From Lophium mytilinum (lineage: Eukaryota), in the NCBI GenBank assembly GCA_010093605.1, contig MU004194.1, forward strand, positions 1,278,323 to 1,342,322: a DNA stretch of 64,000 nt, in the 5' to 3' direction. Positions 22,697 to 35,432 of the stretch are shown in pieces. Made by a program: the position numbers and the translations under genes. How positions within the stretch are numbered: the stretch's first letter is position 1; each line of letters opens with the position of its first letter. Under the pieces are notes generated by a model. The model saw only the letters and a program-made list of their open reading frames with translations. It was not told where the DNA came from and did no database searches.

Positions 22697-25600
22697 CTAC
22701 AGCTCATCATGTGCCTTCTTCTTTGCACCAGCAATAGCCTCTTCTATTTCCTCCATCGTAGCACCTGGCTCCAGCTTGATCTTTCTTGCTTGTTGCCCTT
22801 CCGCCTTCACATCTTCTTCCTCCTCAGCTTTCTCTCCCCTTTTCGACTTCTTCTTGGCCGCCTTCTTCGGCTTCTTCGTCGCCTTGGGTTTGAACGTCTT
22901 GCTCTTAGTCGGCATGCGCATCTTCCTCTGGACCATCTCCATGAGTGCGCTGTTAAGCTTTCGGGATTGCTCTTCCAGCTCCTTGATCGTAAACGCTGCG
23001 TCTTGCGTCTCAGAGAGCTTGGCTTGTTCGGCCAATTTCTCGTCCAGCCACTTCTGCACCGATTCCGAGACGCTGGTGAGAACCTCCAAGTCATCTTCGG
23101 AGTAGACGGGCGGTTCGGGCACCTCGGACGGCTTGACTGCTTCAGACGACGCCGACTTCAGCATATCTTCCTCCTCAAGGTCGTCAAGGGGGTCAGTAGT
23201 GGCCGGTTCTTCTGCCGAGGCAGTAGAGCTGGCAGCTGCTTTGCTCGCTTCTTCGGCAGCCCGAGACGCCTTTGCGGCGCCTTCCTTGATGTCGTTGGCG
23301 ATGATGCCCGTAAAGCTTTTGACTTGATCGAGAGCTTCTTCAAGTGATTTGATGGCATCCGGCCGCCTGCGGGCCTCGTCGATTCGCTTTTGAACAGGGT
23401 CGACAATGTCCTTGAGGTCCTTCAGCTTAGCCTTCAGTGCCTCTTCGGTAGCGTCACGACCATCTCCGTAGATCCAATCGCTAGTAAAGCTGAGCTTGTC
23501 CTCGAGCGAGGATTTTTGCTCGGTCGTAGAGGCGGTAATGAAGTATTCGTTATCCAAAAGATCCCGTGCACGGTAGGTAAAAGCTTCCAATGAGTTGAGA
23601 ACTTCTTCGCGTCCACGTCGAGCTTTGTCTGAGGCATCAAAAGCAGCAAGTCTGCGAAATTAGTGGATGTTTGAATCTGGCGTCTTCGTCACTTAACGTA
23701 CCTGTCCTTCATGCGGTTGTATTCCTTCCGAGGGTATTTTTCATAGCCCTTTTGCGTGATATGGAAGGTGATGGCTGAAGTGACGGTCTTTTTCTTTCCT
23801 TCTGTGGGTTCTGGTGACTCTGACGCCGCGGATGCTGACGATGATTTTGAAGATGATTTTGAGGCTGATTTCGAAGCTGATTTCGAGGACGATGAAGTGG
23901 ACGAGGACTCCGTCGATGATGAAGCCTCTCCTTGAGGCGCTTCCTCGCCTTCTTTAAGGGGCTGTTGTTCTCCATCCTTAGCCCCGAAGCCGAAGAATCC
24001 TTTAACTCCTTCCATCACACCACCCTTGCCCGTATCCTCGGTTTCACAACTGACCCAGCCTCCAACAACCTCAGGAATTCCAGTCACAGGACTCAGTCGT
24101 ACAGAGAACTTAGTGTTGACGGTTTCGCGATCACATCCTTCCTTGTCGATCAAGTTACTGACAACTTTGGTCAAATTCCCAGTCGTAACATGAATGACCG
24201 GTTGTTGTGTAAGCTCCTTTCCATCTGATGGGATGCCTTGGTGTAGAGTAAACTCAAACTCGCCCATCATCTTGAATGGAATATCCTTGGTTGTTCCGAC
24301 CGGCGAGGTAGACGTGAAAAGCTTCTGAAATCGGTCTTTGAGATTCCAAGTATACTGCACACCAACTTGATAGCCTTGAGTATCAACGTCCCGAATCTCC
24401 TTGACTCTGAAACTTGGGCTCAGTCCAGCGGCCTTGAAAGCAGCACCAAAAACAGCTGACTCATCGGCGTTGACGTTGCTCTTAAGCTTGGCTGCTCCAA
24501 TCAGAGATTCAAGCCGCTTTTGAATGAACGGAGTTCGAACAGCGCCACCATGGAGAATGACAGAGTCCAATTCAGACACTGTTAGGCCAGCTGCAGCTAG
24601 AGCTTGCGTAATAGGTCCATCAACACGGGAAGCAAAGTCTGTAGTCAATTCTTCAAACTTCGTCCGGGCGATCTTGTACTTGAAGTCGACATCCTCGTAG
24701 AGTCCTTCGAAGCTTGCCCCGGTATTGGAATTCGCGCTCAAAACTTGTCGGACCTTCTCCGCCTCTTTCAGCAGCTTCGAAGCTGTCCTGCCGTGGGCTT
24801 TGACATCCACAGCTGCAACACCAACTTTCTTTGCGCCAGAGCTTTCAACAAACTGCTGCACCATATCGTCCATGACGATACCGTTCAGTGAGTCTCCGCC
24901 CAAGGCCCGGTCCCAGCCCGTACCGAGTACAATGACCTCTTGAATCGTCTTGTTGAACCTTCCCACATCCTTGACCGTCCTTCCCTGGAACTTCAAGACA
25001 GTCGCCTTGGTAGATCCAGCGCCCATATCAAAGACCATATGATATTCTGCCTTTCCTCCTTCACTAATACTCGGGAATGTCCTTGAGGTCGCGTATTGTA
25101 TGCCAACTGCTAGCCCATCAGATACCATGCCCAGCACCTTCAGCCCAGCCAGGTTGGCCGCGGCCTCCAGCGCCCTCTTCTCATCCGCGGTGTAGAACGG
25201 CGGGATCGTGAACACGACCTCCGACACGTCGTTTCCCTTGCCTGCCATTGCTACAGCGTTATCCCGCACATTCTGCAGCTCCATTGCCAGCAATTCCTCA
25301 ACGGAAAACGGCAGCTCATCTTGGGGCAGAGTCCCGCTCTTAAACGCAATAGTGGGTCGTCCGTCCACTCCCACAACCTGCAATGCCGGATGCCTGTCCT
25401 TATATTCTGTGACTACGCTCGGGTCTTCGAGGGGTACACCGAGAAGGGTCTTCAGATTTGGGTAGACGTCGCCTGGGAATCGCGCCGCGAGGGCGAGGGC
25501 ATCACCGCCATAGAATCGTTCGGGGAAGCTGCCGGCCTGGTGACCAGCTCTCGAAGGTTTGAATGCGACGGCGGAGGCCTCTTTGCGTTTTGAGTCCTTT

Positions 25601-25779
25601 GTCAGTACGATATCGAGAGGGATACCAGGTTTAACGAGGGCCGCTTTGATGTATTCTGTGCCAATGTCTACACCGAGGACAGCTGAGGCAGCGGAGGCTG
25701 TGCTGGAGAGAAGCAATAGTAGGCCGAAGACGATGGTCAACGGAGAGAGGAGGAGTCGTCGGCGACCGGGTGGTGCCAT
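22697..25779 (-). CDS. LHS1: ER lumenal Hsp70-family chaperone/nucleotide exchange factor (Grp170/Lhs1)
   Basis: Signal peptide, VLGVDIGTEYIKAALVKPGIPLDIVL, FDMGAGST, NVNADESAVFGA; intron 23652-23701; C-terminal HDEL. Confidence 0.95.
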
Positions 25780-26366
25780 TGTGGATTGAAGCTGTGGAGG
25801 GGGCCGGGGGAGCTTCAATCAATAAAAAAGGCGAGATGACGATGTGGCCAGAAGCGAGGGGTTCTTTGATGCGCCAAAACACCAAGGAAAAGATTCAGAG
25901 GTGCTTTAGGTGAAGAAATAGAAAGAAGAGAAGAGAGCATGAGTCCTCTAAGTCTTGTAGGCGAGAATGGACATCGATGTTGTCCTAGCGGTGTTAAATC
26001 AGCAGCATTCAAGTGAACACCGTGGCGTTTTGCATTGAGGCCACCTTTGATGCCGCGAACCGCCCCATGAACAATTGGATCTTCCTCCACGCGCGGGAAA
26101 ACATATGAGGTCCTCTGAGCTTATTCTAGCTAGAAGCACCCTTTAAATTGAACTGCTATCTATATTGGGTGATCACAAACTGGGCACTTTGCCTAAGAGA
26201 CGGACGCATGTGATTGGTCGGATATATTCACCATTTTGTACGCTTCCAACGCTGGATTAAACTACATAGCTTGACACAAGCACTTTTTCTTAGTTCATTT
26301 TGTTACATAACGCAGGCTTATACAGACGACCTCCGAAGCTCCACCAGAATTGATACTCTCAGTGGT

Positions 26367-27673
26367 CTAGATACCCCGATTGAATTCGACCATTCCGTCC
26401 TTCCCAGCACGCTCCCAGAACTCCGGTTCCAATGTCTTCGCACTCACTGCCTGGCGCTGAGGGAAGGCACCGAGAGCTAGAGGAAGCGCGAATATAGATG
26501 TTGCAAAAATTAGTCCTAATGGTAGATGTTAGTATACCGTGCACTGTTGGCGTCTTCAGGAATTCGTTCACTTACCGACATTCAAGGGCATTACCATCCT
26601 TGGCCTCTGTTTCAGCCAGTTTGTACGCTGTAGTCTGACTAAGACAAGAGGCGGTAGTACCATAATCGGTGTAGCGTTCAAGACTCGACTTAACGCCGTC
26701 TCTCCCACAGCCAATTTAGCGGCAGATTTGCTCTTTCCCAAGCTCTTGATCTCCAGGCTCCCATCCTCCACCTTCCTCTTTTCTTCCTCGCTAAGCACGG
26801 GGAATACATCGATGCCTTGTCTGATCTCCTCGCCGCGCATGAGGAACACATTCAAGGCACCTGCACTAGCCACCGCCGCAAATGGCACGAGGCGCCCCAG
26901 TGTTATCTTAGCTGCTGGCGAGAGACGCTTCAGACGCGGTACGAGAGCGTTTAGGCCCAGAGCAACCGTACATGACGCACCAACAGCCATGAAGTATGAT
27001 TGTATGAGGGTCGACGTGGAGAGAGCCGTGGATTTGTTCGCATTGGCATTATTGATGGCCACATTGAGGGATTGATTAGTGATCTGCCATCCTAATATAC
27101 CTGCAGTCTATGGTTTAGTTAGTATCGAAAGTCTCCCTGCGACGTGTTGGGTTGCTTACCCCAAGCCCAGGCGTGAGCATACCCGCCGTCACCACCAAGT
27201 TGGAAATAACAAAGCAGGACATGCGAAATGGGAGGAAAACTGGCTTTCCGGTGTCTTTTGAATAGTCAGATTCTAGCCTTTGTGTTGATCGTATGACTCC
27301 TACCCGGATGGAGTGTAGAATCCACGATCTTCTTCGCGGTCCACAGCTCCGGCGTCATCTCCTTGATCTCGCCCTGCTTATACAATGTGACCAACTTCTT
27401 CGCATGATCAAGACCGGTTGGGGATGTCAGGAGAGTCCTGTATCATGTAAAGTTAGCTCAAGCTCTCCACGCGCAAAACATTGGAATTGAAGCATGACGC
27501 GCATTCAATGGTAGTGGTACTCACCACACCAGGACAAAGCAAGGAGATATCTACAAGCAGCTTCCTCACCTAGGGTCTGAGATTCCTGCGGAGTGTTTGA
27601 CCCGCCCCCAGTATGTACTGAGGTCATACTGGGAAGCGGGCAAGTCGCGATTTCCGGGTAATGCAGAGGACAT
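26367..27673 (-). CDS. FSF1: Mitochondrial sideroflexin
   Basis: MSSALPG...YDLSTYWGRVKHSAGISDPR, LHPD, NQSLNVAINNANAN, RLVPFAAVASAGALNVFLMR, LALGAFPQ...VEFNRGI*; several GT-AG introns. Confidence 0.93.
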
Positions 27674-28130
27674 TGCAAGAGCTTCGGCGGTAACGAGGGG
27701 AGAGTGGAGAGTGGAGAGTGAAGTTTGGTCAATTGACAAGAAGCATGCTTTATTAGGAAGTAGAGCCCATGGTTGAAGCACAAAGCTTTCGTTTGCAGAC
27801 GACAAGCTGGCCGGCTAGATGGTGTCGTAGCTGGCCGGCGGGCGGAGGTGAGCTTAGGACGATATCGGCACCTTTTTAGCGGTGTGACAGCTTTCGGCAT
27901 GCGTCGGCTGTTCCTGTTTCGGCTCAACCACTTCTATTTCCTTCAATACTTTGAGCCTCTCTAACTTATTATGAGACAGTATATCTTTTTCGTTGTACGG
28001 AACTCAGAATTCAGTTTATTCGAATAGTATGCATAGCTTTTGCTGAGGTACCTTTGTATAAACAAACAGATATTCTACCATAACCAAACGAGCCTCCCCT
28101 GGCTTTAGCATCCGCAAGATCTGATATCAT

Positions 28131-28169
28131 CCTGTGATCTTTGCATTCCTGACCTTCGGTGGTGCTTTA
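28131..28169 (-). repeat. Inverted 39-bp copy of part of the tRNA-Thr gene (canonical intron plus 3' exon start)
   Basis: Reverse complement matches 29433-29471 at 37/39. Confidence 0.9.
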
Positions 28170-29286
28170 ACACGCCCTCTTGACTTTATATGGAAGATAC
28201 TGCAGTGTAAAGTAGCGGAGCCAGTGTAAGAACTCTTCGAAGTGTTGAAATTCTAGCTTAATCGGAGTCTCAAAAGTGTTCGAAGCACCGATGGCAGTAG
28301 CAGTACACAGACTAATGACAGCAAGCTGATTTAGCCATGTGATGGCGCAGATAGAGCAAACGGTCTGCACCGTGTCACTGAAGCGCTCGATTGCTTTCAA
28401 AATGGTGGTCCACGGCACTACTTACAATGCCAGCGCTGCTCTCTGTAGTTTGCATCTGACTCTTGTACGCAGCTATCAGTTGACAGGTTTTTAAGATGCC
28501 TATTCAGAAGTCTCTGCACTATCTTGCCGACGTCTGTGGTACCGTGGCACACTTTCAAGGATCAGAATGAGATAGACATGAATCCCTCTGAAGAGCCTGT
28601 AAACTTGCTGAGCCACCTAAGACGGTCGTAACCCAGGATAGCAAGTACCGATTTCTAGATTGTCTCAAATGTGCGATAGACAGTGATGGAAGAGTGCGCA
28701 ACTGATAAAGAGAGATTGAAGAAGATTACACAGGTGTGTACGCGTGTATGCCACTGCTTGGGGTGCTCCAATACATTTTAGGACATCTAAACGGGATAGA
28801 AGCTCTTCCCTTTGCGCTCCGTGAAAACTCATGGGGACACTTCAAACAGTGGTAAATAAGTGCATTTAAGAGACAGCGTAGTAGTTGAGTGTCAATACAC
28901 GAGTTCGTGAGGTGTGCTATTTCTGTGTACGCTTGTTTAGCACCACTTGAGGTTCTCCAGTACACCATTTCTATTCATGGAATACCAAATTTGGCAAGGC
29001 TGATAGCTCTCCGGACCACCTCAGACGGTGTTGACCTGCGTGGTGGCTGGGAGAGGCCTGCGGCCTTTCACAGCACGTGATAACGCTGTTCGACCGATCT
29101 TCCAACATTTCAAGCCAAAAATTTAGGACTTGATACATTCGATGGATGCAAAGATAATCCAAAGGGTCGATAGCATGTCAGAGCGAAATTCTTTGAGAAG
29201 TTTTGAAGTGACGTGGCACCATACCCCGCTTGTGCCCCACCTGGTGTAGAGTTAATAAGGCGAATAATTTTTGGTCTTGCCCAAAA

Positions 29287-29491
29287 GCCTGCATGGCGCA
29301 GGTAAGCAATATGCAATTCTCACATAGTGGTGCAATGGCTAATTCATACTAGTGGTAACGGTAAGCTCCAGTAACAGTCACTGCAAACTTCATGGGTTGA
29401 TTTTCGATAGCGTTGCACTTGTATCAAGGCGGTAAAGCACCACCGAAGGTCAGGGATGCAAAGATCACTGGTTCAATTCCAGTTGTAGGCA
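29287..29491 (+). tRNA. tRNA-Thr(TGT): tRNA-Thr(UGU) in four exons: two spliceosomal-type introns plus one canonical tRNA intron
   Basis: Exons 29287-29301, 29353-29360, 29411-29423 and 29456-29491 join to GCCTGCATGGCGCAGTGGTAACGCGTTGCACTTGTAATGCAAAGATCACTGGTTCAATTCCAGTTGTAGGCA (72 nt): acceptor stem GCCTGCA/TGTAGGC, anticodon stem TTGCA/TGCAA, loop CTTGTAA, T arm ACTGG-TTCAATT-CCAGT. Confidence 0.88.
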
Positions 29492-29495
29492 CTTC

Positions 29496-29511
29496 TTTTT
29501 GCATTCTTTTT
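29496..29511 (+). terminator. Pol III oligo-T terminator(s) of tRNA-Thr
   Basis: T5 runs at 29496-29500 and 29507-29511 just after discriminator A73. Confidence 0.7.
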
Positions 29512-30355
29512 GGTCCTTGAATGGTATAGGGTGGGTCCTTACGTGGTATAGGGTGGTGGTTGGATGGGCGGGGCCCTAGGATTCAAGACTGGCACACCAC
29601 TTCAAAATTGTGCAACAACCACAACACCAACGCTTCAAGGAACACCCGATTTATCATCGCTAACCATCGAAGTGTTTGTTATTAACATGTTAGAGTCTTC
29701 TACAGAGATTTAGATTTACTATGCCCTTACGATGCCCGCCTTAGGTACACAGTGACAGGCCACAAGTACGTACACTGGTACGCCGCTGCTTGGGATGCCC
29801 CCACAGAGTTTCCAGGACTTTAAGGGGGATGTCAAGCTTTAAGCAGTTCATATTAGAGTTTCTCATAATCAACTAGATGTGCAGTAACCAGAGTACCCCC
29901 AATAGTAGTTTCAAGTAAGCAAAGTTGGAGCAAGGCAGAAATGGTTTCAGGTGAGCGGACTTATGGCCCAGTGCAGTCGATGTCGAGGTTCGAGCAGTAC
30001 ATGTTAGACTGCCTTGTGACATATCGCCTGTTCAGCGGCCAGGTTACCCCTAACAGTGGTATTGAGTGGGCAAGTTGGAGTCTGCCAGAGCTGTAATGAA
30101 TCCGTGTGCCCAGACTTGTGGCCTAGGACTGTATAGTATTAGTACATGGCATCGACAATCTCCAACTACTTACTGCATGTCGGAGTTTAGGTCTATTGCG
30201 CTAGATTCAAGCACGTCCTATCGATCTTTGCGGCATATCCGTATCCTATTGGTTCTTCTACTCACTGGCCTTAGTTTTTAACAGTACGTCGAAGCGCCTC
30301 AAACAACGGTAGGGAAGTGGACGGATCTCCATGGCAAGACACAGTATTGAATACA

Positions 30356-33218
30356 TTATACAGGGCTTTCCAAGCCTTCTTGACACGTGCGAGATCCAGT
30401 GTTACATCCCAATGTGAGCGAATGTGAACTGTCTCCAATCCAAAGAGTGTAGTCCCCGCCTACACCAGCAACAAGCCAGTTTTGCATAACTGCATCCCAA
30501 ACACTCAAGTCCTTTCTTGTTACGCTCAGGTTTAGTACTTCACTTTCGCCAGGTCCCAGAGTACTAGTTTTCTCGAAATCTCTGAGCTGGATGATTGGAG
30601 TATCGTAGGCAATGCCCTCTGGGAACTGCACATACAACTGTGCGACAGCCTTGCCGGTGTGGTTTCCAGTGTTGGTCACAGTGACAGAAACGTTGTAAGC
30701 AACATCCCAAAGCGCAGGATTGCCCCCCTGAGCACCTCCCGCAGCTGGTCCTGGCTTTTGAACGGTACTATAGCCAGCGGGGTAGGAATATTTGGTAGTA
30801 TTCGCTGATTTCGCTGCGGCATCGGCGTCAGACTTCTCCAGCCATGAATAGAGGTAGCGCCAAATGCGGTTGAAGTTCGATGGCCAATATGCTTCTGAAG
30901 CCGGAGGAATTGCCATGGAGTAGACCGGCGGAGATCCTTTCGAGGGCCTGTCAGGTGGTAGAGATGACATTGGCGTGATGGCAGTAACAGTAGCATTTGT
31001 GAAGGCGAATGTGGTGTAGCTCATACCATAGCCAAAGGCGTAGCGTGGTTTGATGCCTTCTTTGTTGAAGTGCCGGTAATCAATATAAAGACCTTCGGTG
31101 AACGTATCTTGCGGCTGTCCCAGCTCGAATTCAAGAAGACTGACGCTTTCCGGGTATTCGGACTCGGTATGGGGAATTGTATAGGGCCTTGCTGTGTCAG
31201 CATATTGGTGGTATACGACGACATAATGAACACGAGCTTCTTACAGATGGCCGCTTGGTGAGACTTCACCGAAGAGGATGGAAGTGAGAGACTGTCCAGC
31301 TTCCTGACCGGGAAGGTGAGCGAATAGTACAGACTTCACCGATGGAAGATCTATCCATTCTTCCAGGAGTATTGGCCCCACTGTATGTACTATAACAATG
31401 ACGGTGTCGTAGACCGCTGCGGCACTTTTAACAAGATCGTCGCCACTATGCCAGGCGTGCAGACCGGCACTAGTACGATCACCGGGGTTGTTCTCGACTG
31501 TGATGTAGTTCTCTCCGCTATCAGCGTTGATAAACACGAGTGCTATGTCTCCAGCGGCAGCCTTTGCGCTCGATGGAAAGGAATCCGTGTTGTAGAATAC
31601 GAAATTACTTGTCCTATTCGTGATGGCATCAGTCGGGGAGTCCAAATAGGGATATCTCGCACTCCCTGAGCCCCATCCCATTCCTAGGGTTCCTTTGTCA
31701 CAGCCTTGATCCGAGCAAGAATTAATTCCGTCCGGGTTTTTCTGCGCATCGGTCCCAAATATCTTGAGTGTTGAGTTTGCTTTCAGAGGTAAGGTACTAT
31801 TTGTGTTCTTAAGCATGGTGATTGCATCTCTTGCGATGTCTCGGCAGATTACGGCATGACTTCCTTGGACGTCGACGAATTCGTTTACAACTCCGGATGG
31901 CGAGAACAGCGCACCTGGATATAGTGGCCCCATCGCATCGAGGGTATTCGTTGAGAAGTTCGGGTCCGGATAGTTTTCATCCTGTCCCATTTGGAACCAT
32001 GTGGCAAGTATCCTAGTGGCCATATCGTTGAGACGATCAACCGGCACTGACCCGTTTAATACTGCTCTGGAGAGTTCGTACATCCAGTAAGAGTCTCCCA
32101 ACAGTGGAACCAACCCATCGCCAGGCATGCTCATGTCAAGCCCTGCTAAGGCTGAAGGAACCCCGGAGATTTGAGCAAGCCAGTCAGACATGATGAACCC
32201 CTGAAATCCAAGTTCGTCTTTGAGAATGCCATTTATCAGATAGCTGTTCTGAGAGCACGCAGAGCCATTCACCTAGGATTATCAATTATGCTCATGCATC
32301 ATACATGTATAGAATTCACTCACCGCATTATATGCTGCCATCACAGATCCAACCCCAGCTTTGACGCCTTCCGCAAATGGCCACAGATAAAGTTCATGCA
32401 GAGTCCTGTCATCGCTGTTGGAGCTTATGCCTGGTTGTAACACGTTGTACATCCGGTACATTTCCTGCTCGTTGAGAATGAAATGCTTGATTGTAGCAAT
32501 TACGCCTTGCTCTTGTACACCCTTGATGGTCAATGCTCCCCCTACTGCTTGGAGCACCGGATCCGCACCAAAGCCTTCCCAATTTCTTCCTCCGCGGGGC
32601 TTTCTCCCCACAGGACCGACTGTAGGGCCAACTCGAAAGATGTCAATATGAATATTGTAGGATACCAGCGTACACACTTACGATGAATGTTGATTCCTTT
32701 ACCCCGAAACTCTTCCCCAATCGCCACTCCCCGAGCGTGCATCAAAGACTTGTCCCAAGTTGCCCCTACAGTGATTCCAGCAGGGAATGCTGTATTGTGG
32801 TCGGAGTTACGTATTCCAAGTGGAGAATCTTGCAGACATAATTGCGGCACACCAAGCCGAACAGCACTTCCAGTGTTCCCGACACACCTCCCTGAACCAG
32901 TTAGTCTAGTATCAACAGTACTCAAAGAATCGCTCGTATCCTACCCATGTCGTATCCTGATCCACACGTTATGTTTGTTTTCTCTGCCAATGTCATGTTA
33001 GCGACGAGCAACGCAGCTTTTCTGTAACTCTCGCTCCAATCTGCAACCCACCCTCCGTGAGGAGTAGGATAATACGGAGGCGCGACATAGCCATCAGGAA
33101 CAGCCAATCGCTTGCTGAAGCGAGTGTCATCGATTAGGGAAGCAAAAGCCAACGAGGTACATAAGGAAAGTATTGATACGACTTTAACAAGACGTGAGAT
33201 AATAACAAACGTAGACAT
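30356..33218 (-). CDS. Secreted GH3 beta-glucosidase
   Basis: Signal peptide; [47 protein letters not shown], nucleophile [15 protein letters not shown] fibronectin-like C-terminus; about 4 introns. Confidence 0.95.
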
Positions 33219-34059
33219 TATGATTGTACTCTTGAAAAAGGAATGAACGAAACGAACCGCGAGCTTGCCTCGATGCCTAAGACATTGCGCATCGCGTCGA
33301 GTAATAAAGAATGTGCCCTTGCCGCTCCGCAAGAGATTGGATTCGGACTCAGCCCATATTCGTCTAAGACCGATGACACCCTCCCCAGCATCTGATTCAA
33401 AGGTTAATATAGACTAGGAAAGCCATTTATGCGCGTGGGTGTAGTGACGTCCGCACGCGTTTTTGCCGAGGAATGAAGGACGATCAGGGGTTGGTCGGCA
33501 CGATAAAGGAGCTGACAGGGTGGAACCCTTGATTGGTTAATTAATTGATTCGGTGGCTTTGAACTTGGCCAGGCTGATCGGCGGCCGTCTTGCCATTCAG
33601 ACCTGTTTCCGAAGCTGTGTTGCGCATAGTAGGCAGGAAACTTGCAGCGGTTGATTACTTTTAAGAGTCAGTGGTGGCGATGCAGTCCAAGTAACCTTTG
33701 TAAAATAGTTTGGAGCTGCCTGAATAGAGAATGGCTAACAGCCAAGGCGCGCAAGAGACAGCTAGATCGTGAGCTTTTGAAGCCACATCATGGGGTTTTA
33801 CATAGCAATATGCAGCTCATAAGGGAACGTGGTACTGAAAACTGACGGTGTAGAGGGAAGATCCGTAGGTGGCCCACATCGTACTCTTGTAGCCTCGCTT
33901 TGATAGTCTAGACCTAGATAGTGCTAGTCAAATTATGGGCCCCTCTAAGGTTAGGGTAAATAGTGACCAGACTCCTTCAACCATCATCAGCACCCTCTTT
34001 ACCAGCCACCTCAGCTAGTGTATATAGCTAGCCGCTGTACTATCCTCACAACACGACTC

Positions 34060-35001
34060 TTACAACAAGCTTCTTGTCCTGAATTTTGACACATTCCACC
34101 CATCCGCTGTCCAACTCTGAGGCCTTTGACTTACACCTGCCTTCCAAGTCGCCAAAACAGCGCTCCAATACTCCTCCTCATGCCCTCTTACATGGCCACA
34201 GTGTGAGCTGGACTCAAAGACTAATTCTTCCACCTCTGGCCAACCCAGTGCGCGTGCTTCAAAGGCATGGTCATGGATATCTTTCCACCCGACCACCTCG
34301 TCCGATTTCGAGTAGATGTAACACCTAGAAGCCGAAGGACTGAATAGACTCTTGTTATGGAGACCCTTCCGAAGCCTCGTCACAAGCTGATCTTGCCCGG
34401 TAACAGTCTGGGCAATGGCGACAATGGCCATGACACTATACAGCACGACGGTTCCTATAGCCTGTACAAGCCATGATTTTGGAAGGCCGGACAATACTGC
34501 GCGCGCACTCCCTCTAATGGTGTCCTTCCCTGGAGCGCTGTCTACGATGATTGCGTTCACTGGTAGTGGGAACCCTTCCGCCTCCTTGAAGGCTTCCGCA
34601 ACTTGGAGGATTTGGTAGGCTCCTCCGTGGCTCATAGTATGAAGAAGGATCCAGGGCTTCCGGTTGGATGTCGAGTTGATTAAAGATTTTATGATCTTCG
34701 CAGCTGGCCCTACGCGTTTTCGTTGTGCTTTGGCTGAGTATATTATGACATCAGCCGGACCAGTAATGATGAGCACAATTTGCGCAAGCGGAAAGAGGGT
34801 CTTGAAGCCCGATGTGTACTTCAAGACGTGACGGGGTCCTGCTCCTAACCAGGTCGCGAGGAGGATCAGATCGGGTGGATCGTCAGAATTCCCATTGCTG
34901 GAGGTCGGAGCGATGGTGGCATCTGGGTCTGAGCTCGGTGTATACAAAAAGACAACGTCGGTCAGCCTTTCGAATCCCTCTGGAGCTTGGAAGGTAGGCA
35001 T
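34060..35001 (-). CDS. DUF829/TMEM53-like alpha/beta protein (PaxU-like)
   Basis: LILLATWLGA...LKY, LLHTMSHGG, IIVDSAPG, RCYIYSKSDEVV.WKDIHDHA, FESSSHCGH. Confidence 0.82.
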   Translation of the reverse strand: MPTFQAPEGFERLTDVVFLYTPSSDPDATIAPTSSNGNSDDPPDLILLATWLGAGPRHVLKYTSGFKTLFPLAQIVLIITGPADVIIYSAKAQRKRVGPAAKIIKSLINSTSNRKPWILLHTMSHGGAYQILQVAEAFKEAEGFPLPVNAIIVDSAPGKDTIRGSARAVLSGLPKSWLVQAIGTVVLYSVMAIVAIAQTVTGQDQLVTRLRKGLHNKSLFSPSASRCYIYSKSDEVVGWKDIHDHAFEARALGWPEVEELVFESSSHCGHVRGHEEEYWSAVLATWKAGVSQRPQSWTADGWNVSKFRTRSLL

Positions 35002-35432
35002 GACCAAAAAATGTTCGCTGAGAATAGAGAGAGCAGCAAGCAAGTATTTATCAGACCCAACCCAACCCCAATACTTAACGTCCGGGTTTCAGCTAAGCCC
35101 GAAACCCGCCCAAACGCACGATAGACGGTCAGGCCTCCCAATTAGGCCTTATACTTAGGCACCGCAAACATTGTCACGCAATCATCGACGTTCATGCCTT
35201 GAAGTACACTTTCAATCTTTGCAGACCATTTTGACACCGTCTGGGGTAGCCTCGCGAGTTTAATGGTAGTCCAGACTTCCATGCTTTTTCCTTATTCGGA
35301 ACGCTGAAAGCACCTGGGGCTCCTCAAGCAGTGGTAAGCGAGTGTACAAATTTCTATAACGAGTCATTGTAGTAATTATAGTTGAAGTCAGGTCCGATCT
35401 CCCAGTCCATTTACCCCTAAAATTACCCAGTC

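Follow-up and report, generated by a model that had tools for sequence, protein, structure and literature searches.

A tRNA-Thr(UGU) gene of the fungus Lophium mytilinum with two spliceosomal-type introns in its D arm

Can a tRNA gene carry introns of the kind that the spliceosome removes? The question is raised by a locus of Lophium mytilinum (GenBank assembly GCA_010093605.1, contig MU004194.1), which lies in a stretch of 64,000 nucleotides (positions 1,278,323 to 1,342,322 of the forward strand) that we analysed as a whole and refer to as the window. An initial annotation, made from the letters of the window without database searches, had placed here a tRNA-Thr(UGU) gene in four exon pieces, interrupted in its D arm by two GT-AG introns and at the standard position 37/38 by a tRNA intron. 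We re-read the coordinates, the letters and the exon/intron boundaries, and they were borne out base for base (Table 1). The structure of the gene is real, exact and very unusual.

Reconstruction of the tRNA

When all three insertions were removed in silico, the locus yielded a 72-nt cloverleaf that ARAGORN called as a clean tRNA-Thr(tgt). A 7-bp acceptor stem, the D, anticodon and T arms and the anticodon TGT came together only after this removal. When the 51- and 50-nt insertions alone were taken out, ARAGORN again called a tRNA-Thr(tgt), this time with the remaining 32 nt as an anticodon-loop intron, in agreement with the canonical tRNA intron that had been proposed at 37/38. The two D-arm introns interrupt the tRNA after G15 (intron 1) and after G23 (intron 2), and leave between them a micro-exon of 8 nt.

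The unedited genomic sequence gives a different picture. ARAGORN in its default mode found no tRNA gene in the window, and Rfam at the gathering score had no match there. At a relaxed threshold, the Rfam tRNA model scored 22.0 bits against a cut-off of 29, in a match that spans 29386-29491 and has a forced, mostly unpaired 5' strand; the best match of any other Rfam family in 27900-30300 reached only E=0.19. The intron mode of ARAGORN found the acceptor strands (29287-29492) but took the gene wrongly for a Glu(ctc) tRNA, with 132 nt as its intron. The comparison that the initial annotation had called for, of a tRNA finder on the genomic and on the in-silico spliced sequence, thus ends in failure on the former and in Thr(tgt) on the latter, as it had foreseen for standard finders. 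The locus falls into a blind spot of tRNA annotation, in which a gene is absent by ARAGORN default mode and by the Rfam gathering score, and miscalled by ARAGORN intron mode.

As a control for the removal itself, we prepared 551 constructs from 420 loosely intron-like segments, taken from both strands of the whole window and removed singly and as nearby pairs. A tRNA call resulted from two of the 551, both at 29287-29491. Thr(tgt) was obtained only from the exact pair of introns first proposed, and a construct that skipped the micro-exon gave a spurious Leu(cag) call. No hidden tRNA emerged elsewhere in the window from the 551 constructs.

We then compared the gene with homologues that lack the two D-arm insertions. 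JGI metagenome contigs were scanned with a 27-nt stretch of the 3' half, and three loci (L001-L003) were obtained, two of them identical in sequence. L001 is an ordinary fungal tRNA-Thr(UGU) gene, its only intron being one of 25 nt at 37/38 (Rfam, 56.1 bits). L002 is a tRNA-Thr(UGU) gene with a 12-nt intron at the same place (62.3 bits), and its 3' half is common with that of the window gene. Introns 1 and 2 are absent from L001 and from L002, whereas the 37/38 intron is present in both. The in-silico product and the L001 tRNA are identical at 70 of 72 positions, and the two that differ pair with each other in the acceptor stem (7:66), a pair that is A:U in the window and U:A in L001, so that the change is compensated. 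The micro-exon and exon 3 are identical to L001, and exon 1 differs from it only at position 7. This indicates that the exon pieces are native to the tRNA and that the boundaries of the insertions are exact. The C13-A22 mismatch in the D stem is shared with L001, which indicates that it too is a native feature of this tRNA. Only the tRNA is common between the flanks of L001-L003 and the window, with no synteny; judged by their sequences the three loci are homologues, and orthology of the loci is not implied.

Table 1 The tRNA-Thr(UGU) locus and its surroundings, in window coordinates
Feature	Position	Strand	Details
tRNA-Thr(UGU) gene, four exon pieces	29287-29491	+	letters and coordinates re-read
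AT-rich upstream stretch	29252-29272	+	TTAATAAG at -35 to -28, AATAATTTTT at -24 to -15
T5 run upstream of the tRNA	29268-29272	+	15 nt before the tRNA 5' end, within the AT-rich stretch
Exon 1, 15 nt	29287-29301	+	acceptor 5' strand, U8, G9, D-stem 5' strand, A14, G15
Intron 1, 51 nt, spliceosomal type	29302-29352	+	GTAAGC 5' site, GCTAAT branch motif, CTAG 3' end
Micro-exon TGGTAACG, 8 nt	29353-29360	+	tRNA positions 16-23: D loop with G18 and G19, start of D-stem 3' strand
Intron 2, 50 nt, spliceosomal type	29361-29410	+	GTAAGC 5' site, GTTGAT branch motif, ATAG 3' end
Exon 3, 13 nt	29411-29423	+	end of D stem, G26, anticodon-stem 5' strand, loop to A37, anticodon TGT
Canonical tRNA intron, 32 nt, position 37/38	29424-29455	+	called by ARAGORN in the anticodon loop after removal of introns 1 and 2
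Exon 4, 36 nt	29456-29491	+	anticodon-stem 3' strand, variable loop, T arm, acceptor 3' strand, A73
B box GGTTCAATTCC	29470-29480	+	within the T arm of exon 4
Two T5 runs, Pol III terminator-like	29496-29500 and 29507-29511	+	directly downstream of the tRNA
Inverted partial copy, 39 nt	28131-28169	minus	37/39 identical to 29433-29471; tRNA-Thr relic
Sideroflexin gene	26568-27900	minus
GH3 beta-glucosidase gene	30174-33846	minus
RNA-confirmed mRNA introns of LHS1 (50 nt) and sideroflexin (60, 52, 49, 132 nt) (position: stretch of all ten introns)	23652-35386	minus	contigs of X1
RNA-confirmed mRNA introns of GH3 beta-glucosidase (57, 51, 50, 53 nt)		minus	contigs of X1
RNA-confirmed intron, 54 nt	35334-35387	+	antisense to, or beside, the DUF829 gene

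Splice signals of the D-arm insertions

Introns verified by RNA within the same window provide the standard against which the two insertions can be judged. The RNA data are the Logan contigs of one public run (X1), the only run that holds this DNA, and their strand is unknown. We regard X1 as RNA-derived because its contigs skip mRNA introns, namely ten GT..AG segments across the 14 kb examined. These ten introns measure 49, 50, 50, 51, 52, 53, 54, 57, 60 and 132 nt (nine of them 49-60 nt), and the insertions of 51 and 50 nt fall within this range. The strong 5' site GTAAGC, with which both insertions begin, recurs in two of the ten, and the verified branch motifs include CTAAT, CTAAC, TTGAT and TTGAC. 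Both insertions also have a YTRAY branch motif, exactly 10 nt after the branch A, and a TAG end.

We expressed these features as a strict test for segments of 45-65 nt, which must start with GTAAGY, end with YAG and contain a YTRAY whose branch A lies 6-22 nt before the end. Both tRNA introns pass it, against 2 of the 10 verified mRNA introns, and under a looser rule the comparison is both against 5 of 10. Segments that pass the strict test occur at 1.9e-6 per start and length in shuffles and at 6.7e-6 in the real window; the test was defined after the data had been seen, so that these figures give no more than an order of magnitude. Three registers of the deletion restore the tRNA at intron 1, and two do so at intron 2, which leaves a joint chance in the order of 1e-10. 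Chance is excluded as the origin of both matches. The claim that the two introns resemble the mRNA introns of the window in size and signals, the 50-nt LHS1 intron among them, therefore held under the strict test and against ten RNA-verified introns. It was also correct that neither contains a T5 run; intron 2 has a T4 run at 29401-29404, and there is no T5 within the gene.

The two introns are unrelated to each other in sequence, and a search of the 64-kb window for a second copy of either found none, blastn-short giving chance matches of 9-13 nt only. An origin by internal duplication of the tRNA was also considered and rejected: in 8 tests, in which either intron was aligned locally to the pre-tRNA on one or the other strand under plain or transition-tolerant scoring, p ranged from 0.024 to 0.60, not significant after correction. 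Since the introns are mutually unrelated, have no second copy in the window and are not tRNA-like, a duplication artefact is unlikely. No reading frame runs across the junctions (each frame has 10-15 stops, and no open stretch exceeds 70 aa), which indicates that the introns do not belong to an overlapping protein-coding gene. A coarse duplex test for a bulge-helix-bulge helix between the junctions found none: the energies were -6.7 kcal/mol for intron 1 and -10.5 kcal/mol for intron 2, compared to shuffle means of -6.6 and -8.8, and 0.46 and 0.26 of 300 shuffles, respectively, were at least as stable. By every sequence criterion that we applied, the two insertions thus qualify as introns of the spliceosomal type.

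Maturation, origin and competing explanations

If the gene is active, its RNA would have to pass through two splicing systems. We propose that Pol III, recruited via the B box, via that part of the A box which lies in exon 1 and perhaps via the AT-rich sequence at -35 to -15, makes a precursor of ~215 nt that ends at the downstream T5 runs. The spliceosome would remove the 51- and 50-nt introns by intron definition and join the 8-nt micro-exon, a step with a precedent in the U6 snRNA of fission yeast, itself a Pol III product; the tRNA splicing endonuclease and ligase would then remove the 32-nt intron, and RNase P, RNase Z and the CCA-adding enzyme would finish the ends of the tRNA. In a variant of this scheme, a Pol II read-through transcript would be the spliced substrate. 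The gene has kept its B box, two downstream T5 runs, freedom from internal T5 and the canonical 37/38 intron. We consider it somewhat favoured that the gene is spliced into a working tRNA. For the full proposal, a working nuclear tRNA that needs the spliceosome twice (ligation of the 8-nt micro-exon included) and the tRNA splicing endonuclease once, we estimate a probability of about 0.5.

The AT-rich stretch upstream of the gene is a possible TATA-like Pol III upstream element, and L001 also has an ATAATAT stretch ~30-38 nt upstream. The T5 run inside the stretch would halt Pol III read-through from upstream, and it may itself belong to the TATA-like element. The A box is split by intron 1 after its 8th position, the first 8 positions being held by exon 1. 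Within intron 1, at 29328-29338, the sequence TGGTGCAATGG fits the general A-box pattern TRGYNNARTNG and agrees at 9 of 11 positions with the A box of the reconstituted tRNA, both differences being transitions; by a rough, post-hoc count, the chance of such a likeness is ~1% for both introns together. The S. pombe U6 intron carries a B box, and by analogy TGGTGCAATGG could be a substitute promoter element, or it could be a coincidence.

Several observations weigh against a working gene. With only 8 of its 11 positions contiguous and with ~165 nt between A and B boxes, the split A box may weaken use of the gene by Pol III, and the T4 run in intron 2 could cause an early end of part of the Pol III transcripts. 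This is a single case, at one locus within a 64-kb window. At 28131-28169 on the minus strand there is an inverted copy of 39 nt, 37 of which are identical to 29433-29471. It comprises the 3' part of the 37/38 intron and the first 16 nt of exon 4, without the T arm and the acceptor strand, and weaker similarity extends a few bases further upstream; it is a tRNA-Thr gene relic, at a distance of 1.2 kb from the intact gene. Finally, X1 lists no contig joint across 29302-29352 or 29361-29410, in data whose strand is unknown and of which 8 of 86 contig pieces are listed, and no listed entry for letters between joined pieces matches the micro-exon.

How much the RNA data count depends on what they could have contained. 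X1 holds 81% of 108 sampled words of 28900-29900 in their genomic form, and unspliced RNA or contaminating DNA covers most of this interval. Contigs drop rare forms, and 72-nt mature tRNAs are not expected in such libraries. Moreover, outside exon 4 the genome and the modified tRNA of 72 nt have no 31-mer in common, which is a further reason not to expect the mature tRNA among the contigs. Bin depths around the locus are 350.6, 148.5 and 23.8, and by the arithmetic of bin means, cover of the locus may come solely from a contig of depth ~24. The GH3 mRNA contig immediately downstream, which lies on the minus strand, has the same figure, and this would fit antisense read-through. The X1 result thus speaks, weakly, against the efficient splicing of a + strand transcript made by Pol II, and it is silent on one made by Pol III. 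Of the initial proposal that two splicing machineries act on this tRNA, the anatomy and the signals stand; support from RNA did not follow, with no X1 contig joined across either insertion.

The most serious competitor of a working gene is a dead copy, that is, a redundant member of the tRNA-Thr(UGU) family that was hit by intron gain and inactivated so recently that its signals are still fresh. tRNA genes are usually multi-copy, and a surplus copy of this kind would agree with the interrupted A box, with the T4 run in intron 2, with the presence of only unspliced X1 contigs over the region, and with the 39-nt relic, which would attest to the decay of tRNA-Thr copies nearby. Intron gain in the lineage would agree with it as well: Hysterium pulicare, a relative in the same subclass as Lophium, the Pleosporomycetidae, is rich in introner-like elements, with 144 of them (PMC3609843, Table 1; of this and the other papers cited here, parts were available). 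A dead copy would, on the other hand, have kept its exons undamaged, with 70 of 72 positions as in L001 and both changes compensatory, and would have preserved the terminators, the B box and each of its six splice signals. In addition, two independent insertions 8 nt apart are very unlikely had the first silenced the gene. We regard the dead copy as possible, and on balance doubtful. Even as a dead copy, the locus would preserve a clean record of introns inserted into a gene that does not encode an mRNA.

The spacing of the two introns also bears on how they were gained. That two unrelated introns came to lie 8 nt apart, in a gene of 72 nt, is difficult to ascribe to random insertion, and insertion via RNA bound to the spliceosome is easier to envisage. 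Introns are actively gained in this class of fungi, and the two described here most likely arose through reverse splicing or introner-like insertion. A first intron would bring the RNA into the spliceosome, and a second gain 8 nt away would then become more likely.

A further alternative holds that the insertions are introns of an unannotated + strand Pol II transcript, an mRNA or a long non-coding RNA, that overlaps a tRNA-like sequence. The region is indeed transcribed, with X1 contigs over 28538-29938 at depths of 24-350. However, these contigs are unspliced here, although ten mRNA introns are joined in the same data, and no reading frame crosses the junctions. Mere overlap also leaves unexplained why pieces of 15, 8 and 13 nt match a conserved tRNA exactly. 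We consider this account highly improbable. More improbable still is a non-canonical tRNA intron in each of the two places, cut by the endonuclease via bulge-helix-bulge-like structures and GT-AG only by coincidence: several tRNA introns at non-canonical positions are found in archaea, Cyanidioschyzon merolae and nucleomorphs, but the junction duplexes here are no better than those of shuffles, a full 5' site, branch motif and 3' site in both insertions has a chance of only ~2e-6 to 2e-5 per segment, and the fungal Sen endonuclease, which measures from the mature domain, is known to cut at 37/38 only.

Known counterparts and genomic setting

A working tRNA that needs the spliceosome would add a new host to a known list. 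Spliceosomal introns are recorded in U6 genes (up to four per gene), in U1, U2 and U5 snRNA genes and in rDNA (PMC5855946), as well as in fungal U3 snoRNA genes (PMC5832005). tRNA is not among the non-coding hosts in the parts of these two papers that were available, and the available parts of PMC3879985 (the Kuraishia capsulata genome), PMC11146597 (Ares 2024), PMC11282704 and PMC5647799 contain no mention of spliceosomal introns in tRNA genes. A 2026 review, as far as its available part goes, presents tRNA splicing as spliceosome-independent, in line with textbooks, and micro-exons of 3-15 nt as spliceable (PMC13149111). The initial annotation had known of no described case in a tRNA, and we likewise found no description of a spliceosomal intron in a tRNA gene in the full-text literature searched, outside which most subscription journals lie. 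What is new is the tRNA as host; introns of mRNA type in non-coding RNA genes are known.

The closest parallel is found in the U6 genes of S. pombe and other fungi, which are likewise short non-coding Pol III genes with internal promoter elements and short introns (Tani & Ohshima 1989/1991 and Canzler et al. 2016, as cited in PMC5855946). The U6 introns also resemble those of the tRNA gene in that they have canonical 5', branch and 3' sites and are otherwise unconserved, in that several can occur in one gene, and in that an origin by reverse splicing has been proposed for them (PMC5855946). U6 differs from the tRNA in its place at the catalytic centre of the spliceosome, which accounts for its being an intron host, whereas a tRNA is without known contact with the spliceosome. 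Nor does U6 share the need for a second, enzyme-based splicing system to act on the same precursor. The U6 of S. pombe is a spliced snRNA made by Pol III, and its splicing rests on experiments, whereas the tRNA case is known from sequence alone.

In their number of pieces, the transcripts of this gene would also resemble certain tRNAs of archaea, Cyanidioschyzon merolae and nucleomorphs, which come in more than two pieces, combine introns in the D arm with one at 37/38 and are missed by standard finders. Those bulge-helix-bulge introns are defined by structure and cut by the endonuclease; the introns described here have the sequence signals of the spliceosome and showed no junction helix in the coarse test.

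The remaining hosts show how far such introns have spread among the structural RNA genes of fungi, as in U1, U2 and U5 of Rhodotorula hasegawae, in fungal U3 and in ascomycete rDNA (Takahashi 1993/1996 and Bhattacharya 2000, as cited in PMC5855946; Canzler 2017, PMC5832005). There, too, the introns are lineage-specific and have been identified mostly by their canonical signals (PMC5855946, PMC5832005). The presence of U1 and rRNA genes among the hosts indicates that closeness to the spliceosome's active site is not required (PMC5855946). U1, U2, U5 and rDNA differ from the tRNA gene in being transcribed by Pol II or Pol I, while U3 is a Pol III transcript according to PMC5832005. None of these cases is a tRNA, and none needs an 8-nt micro-exon. 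Introner-like elements offer a comparison from the same class, Dothideomycetes, where recent and ongoing gain of spliceosomal introns is followed by decay to ordinary short introns (van der Burgt 2012; Collemare 2013, PMC3609843). Their definition requires many near-identical copies within one genome, and they were described in protein-coding genes (PMC3609843); within the 64-kb window, neither intron 1 nor intron 2 has a second copy.

If the gene does yield a working tRNA through both systems, it would contain the first spliceosomal introns in a tRNA gene, and the spliceosome would be able to act on a pre-tRNA, which would probably be a Pol III transcript. The list of hosts for spliceosomal introns would extend to the most abundant class of Pol III genes, and the intron gain of Dothideomycetes would reach even the most compact RNA genes. 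The two unrelated introns 8 nt apart would argue for insertion via spliceosome-bound RNA. The locus would also provide a natural substrate for studies of whether pre-tRNAs encounter the spliceosome, and where they do so. Further tRNA genes may then form a hidden class, one that the finders now in use report as absent or as pseudogenes.

The locus is intergenic, with the sideroflexin gene on one side and the GH3 beta-glucosidase gene on the other, LHS1 lying further left and the DUF829 gene further right. The LHS1 product is 100% identical to a Lophium mytilinum protein, followed by Mytilinidion resinicola at 91% and Glonium stellatum at 75%. L. mytilinum is a wood-dwelling fungus, and Lophium belongs to the Mytilinidiales (Dothideomycetes, Pleosporomycetidae). 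In two stretches of this nominally intergenic region, 28538-29004 and 29939-30405, the summed depths of X1 contigs are 350 and 195. Several contigs end loosely at 28736-28777, and one runs from 29766 back to 28746 by way of 13 letters of other sequence. Among the X1 contig records, 34 of 67 are only 90-95% alike. The deep and broken coverage near 28538-30405 may reflect an unannotated transcript or a repeated element.

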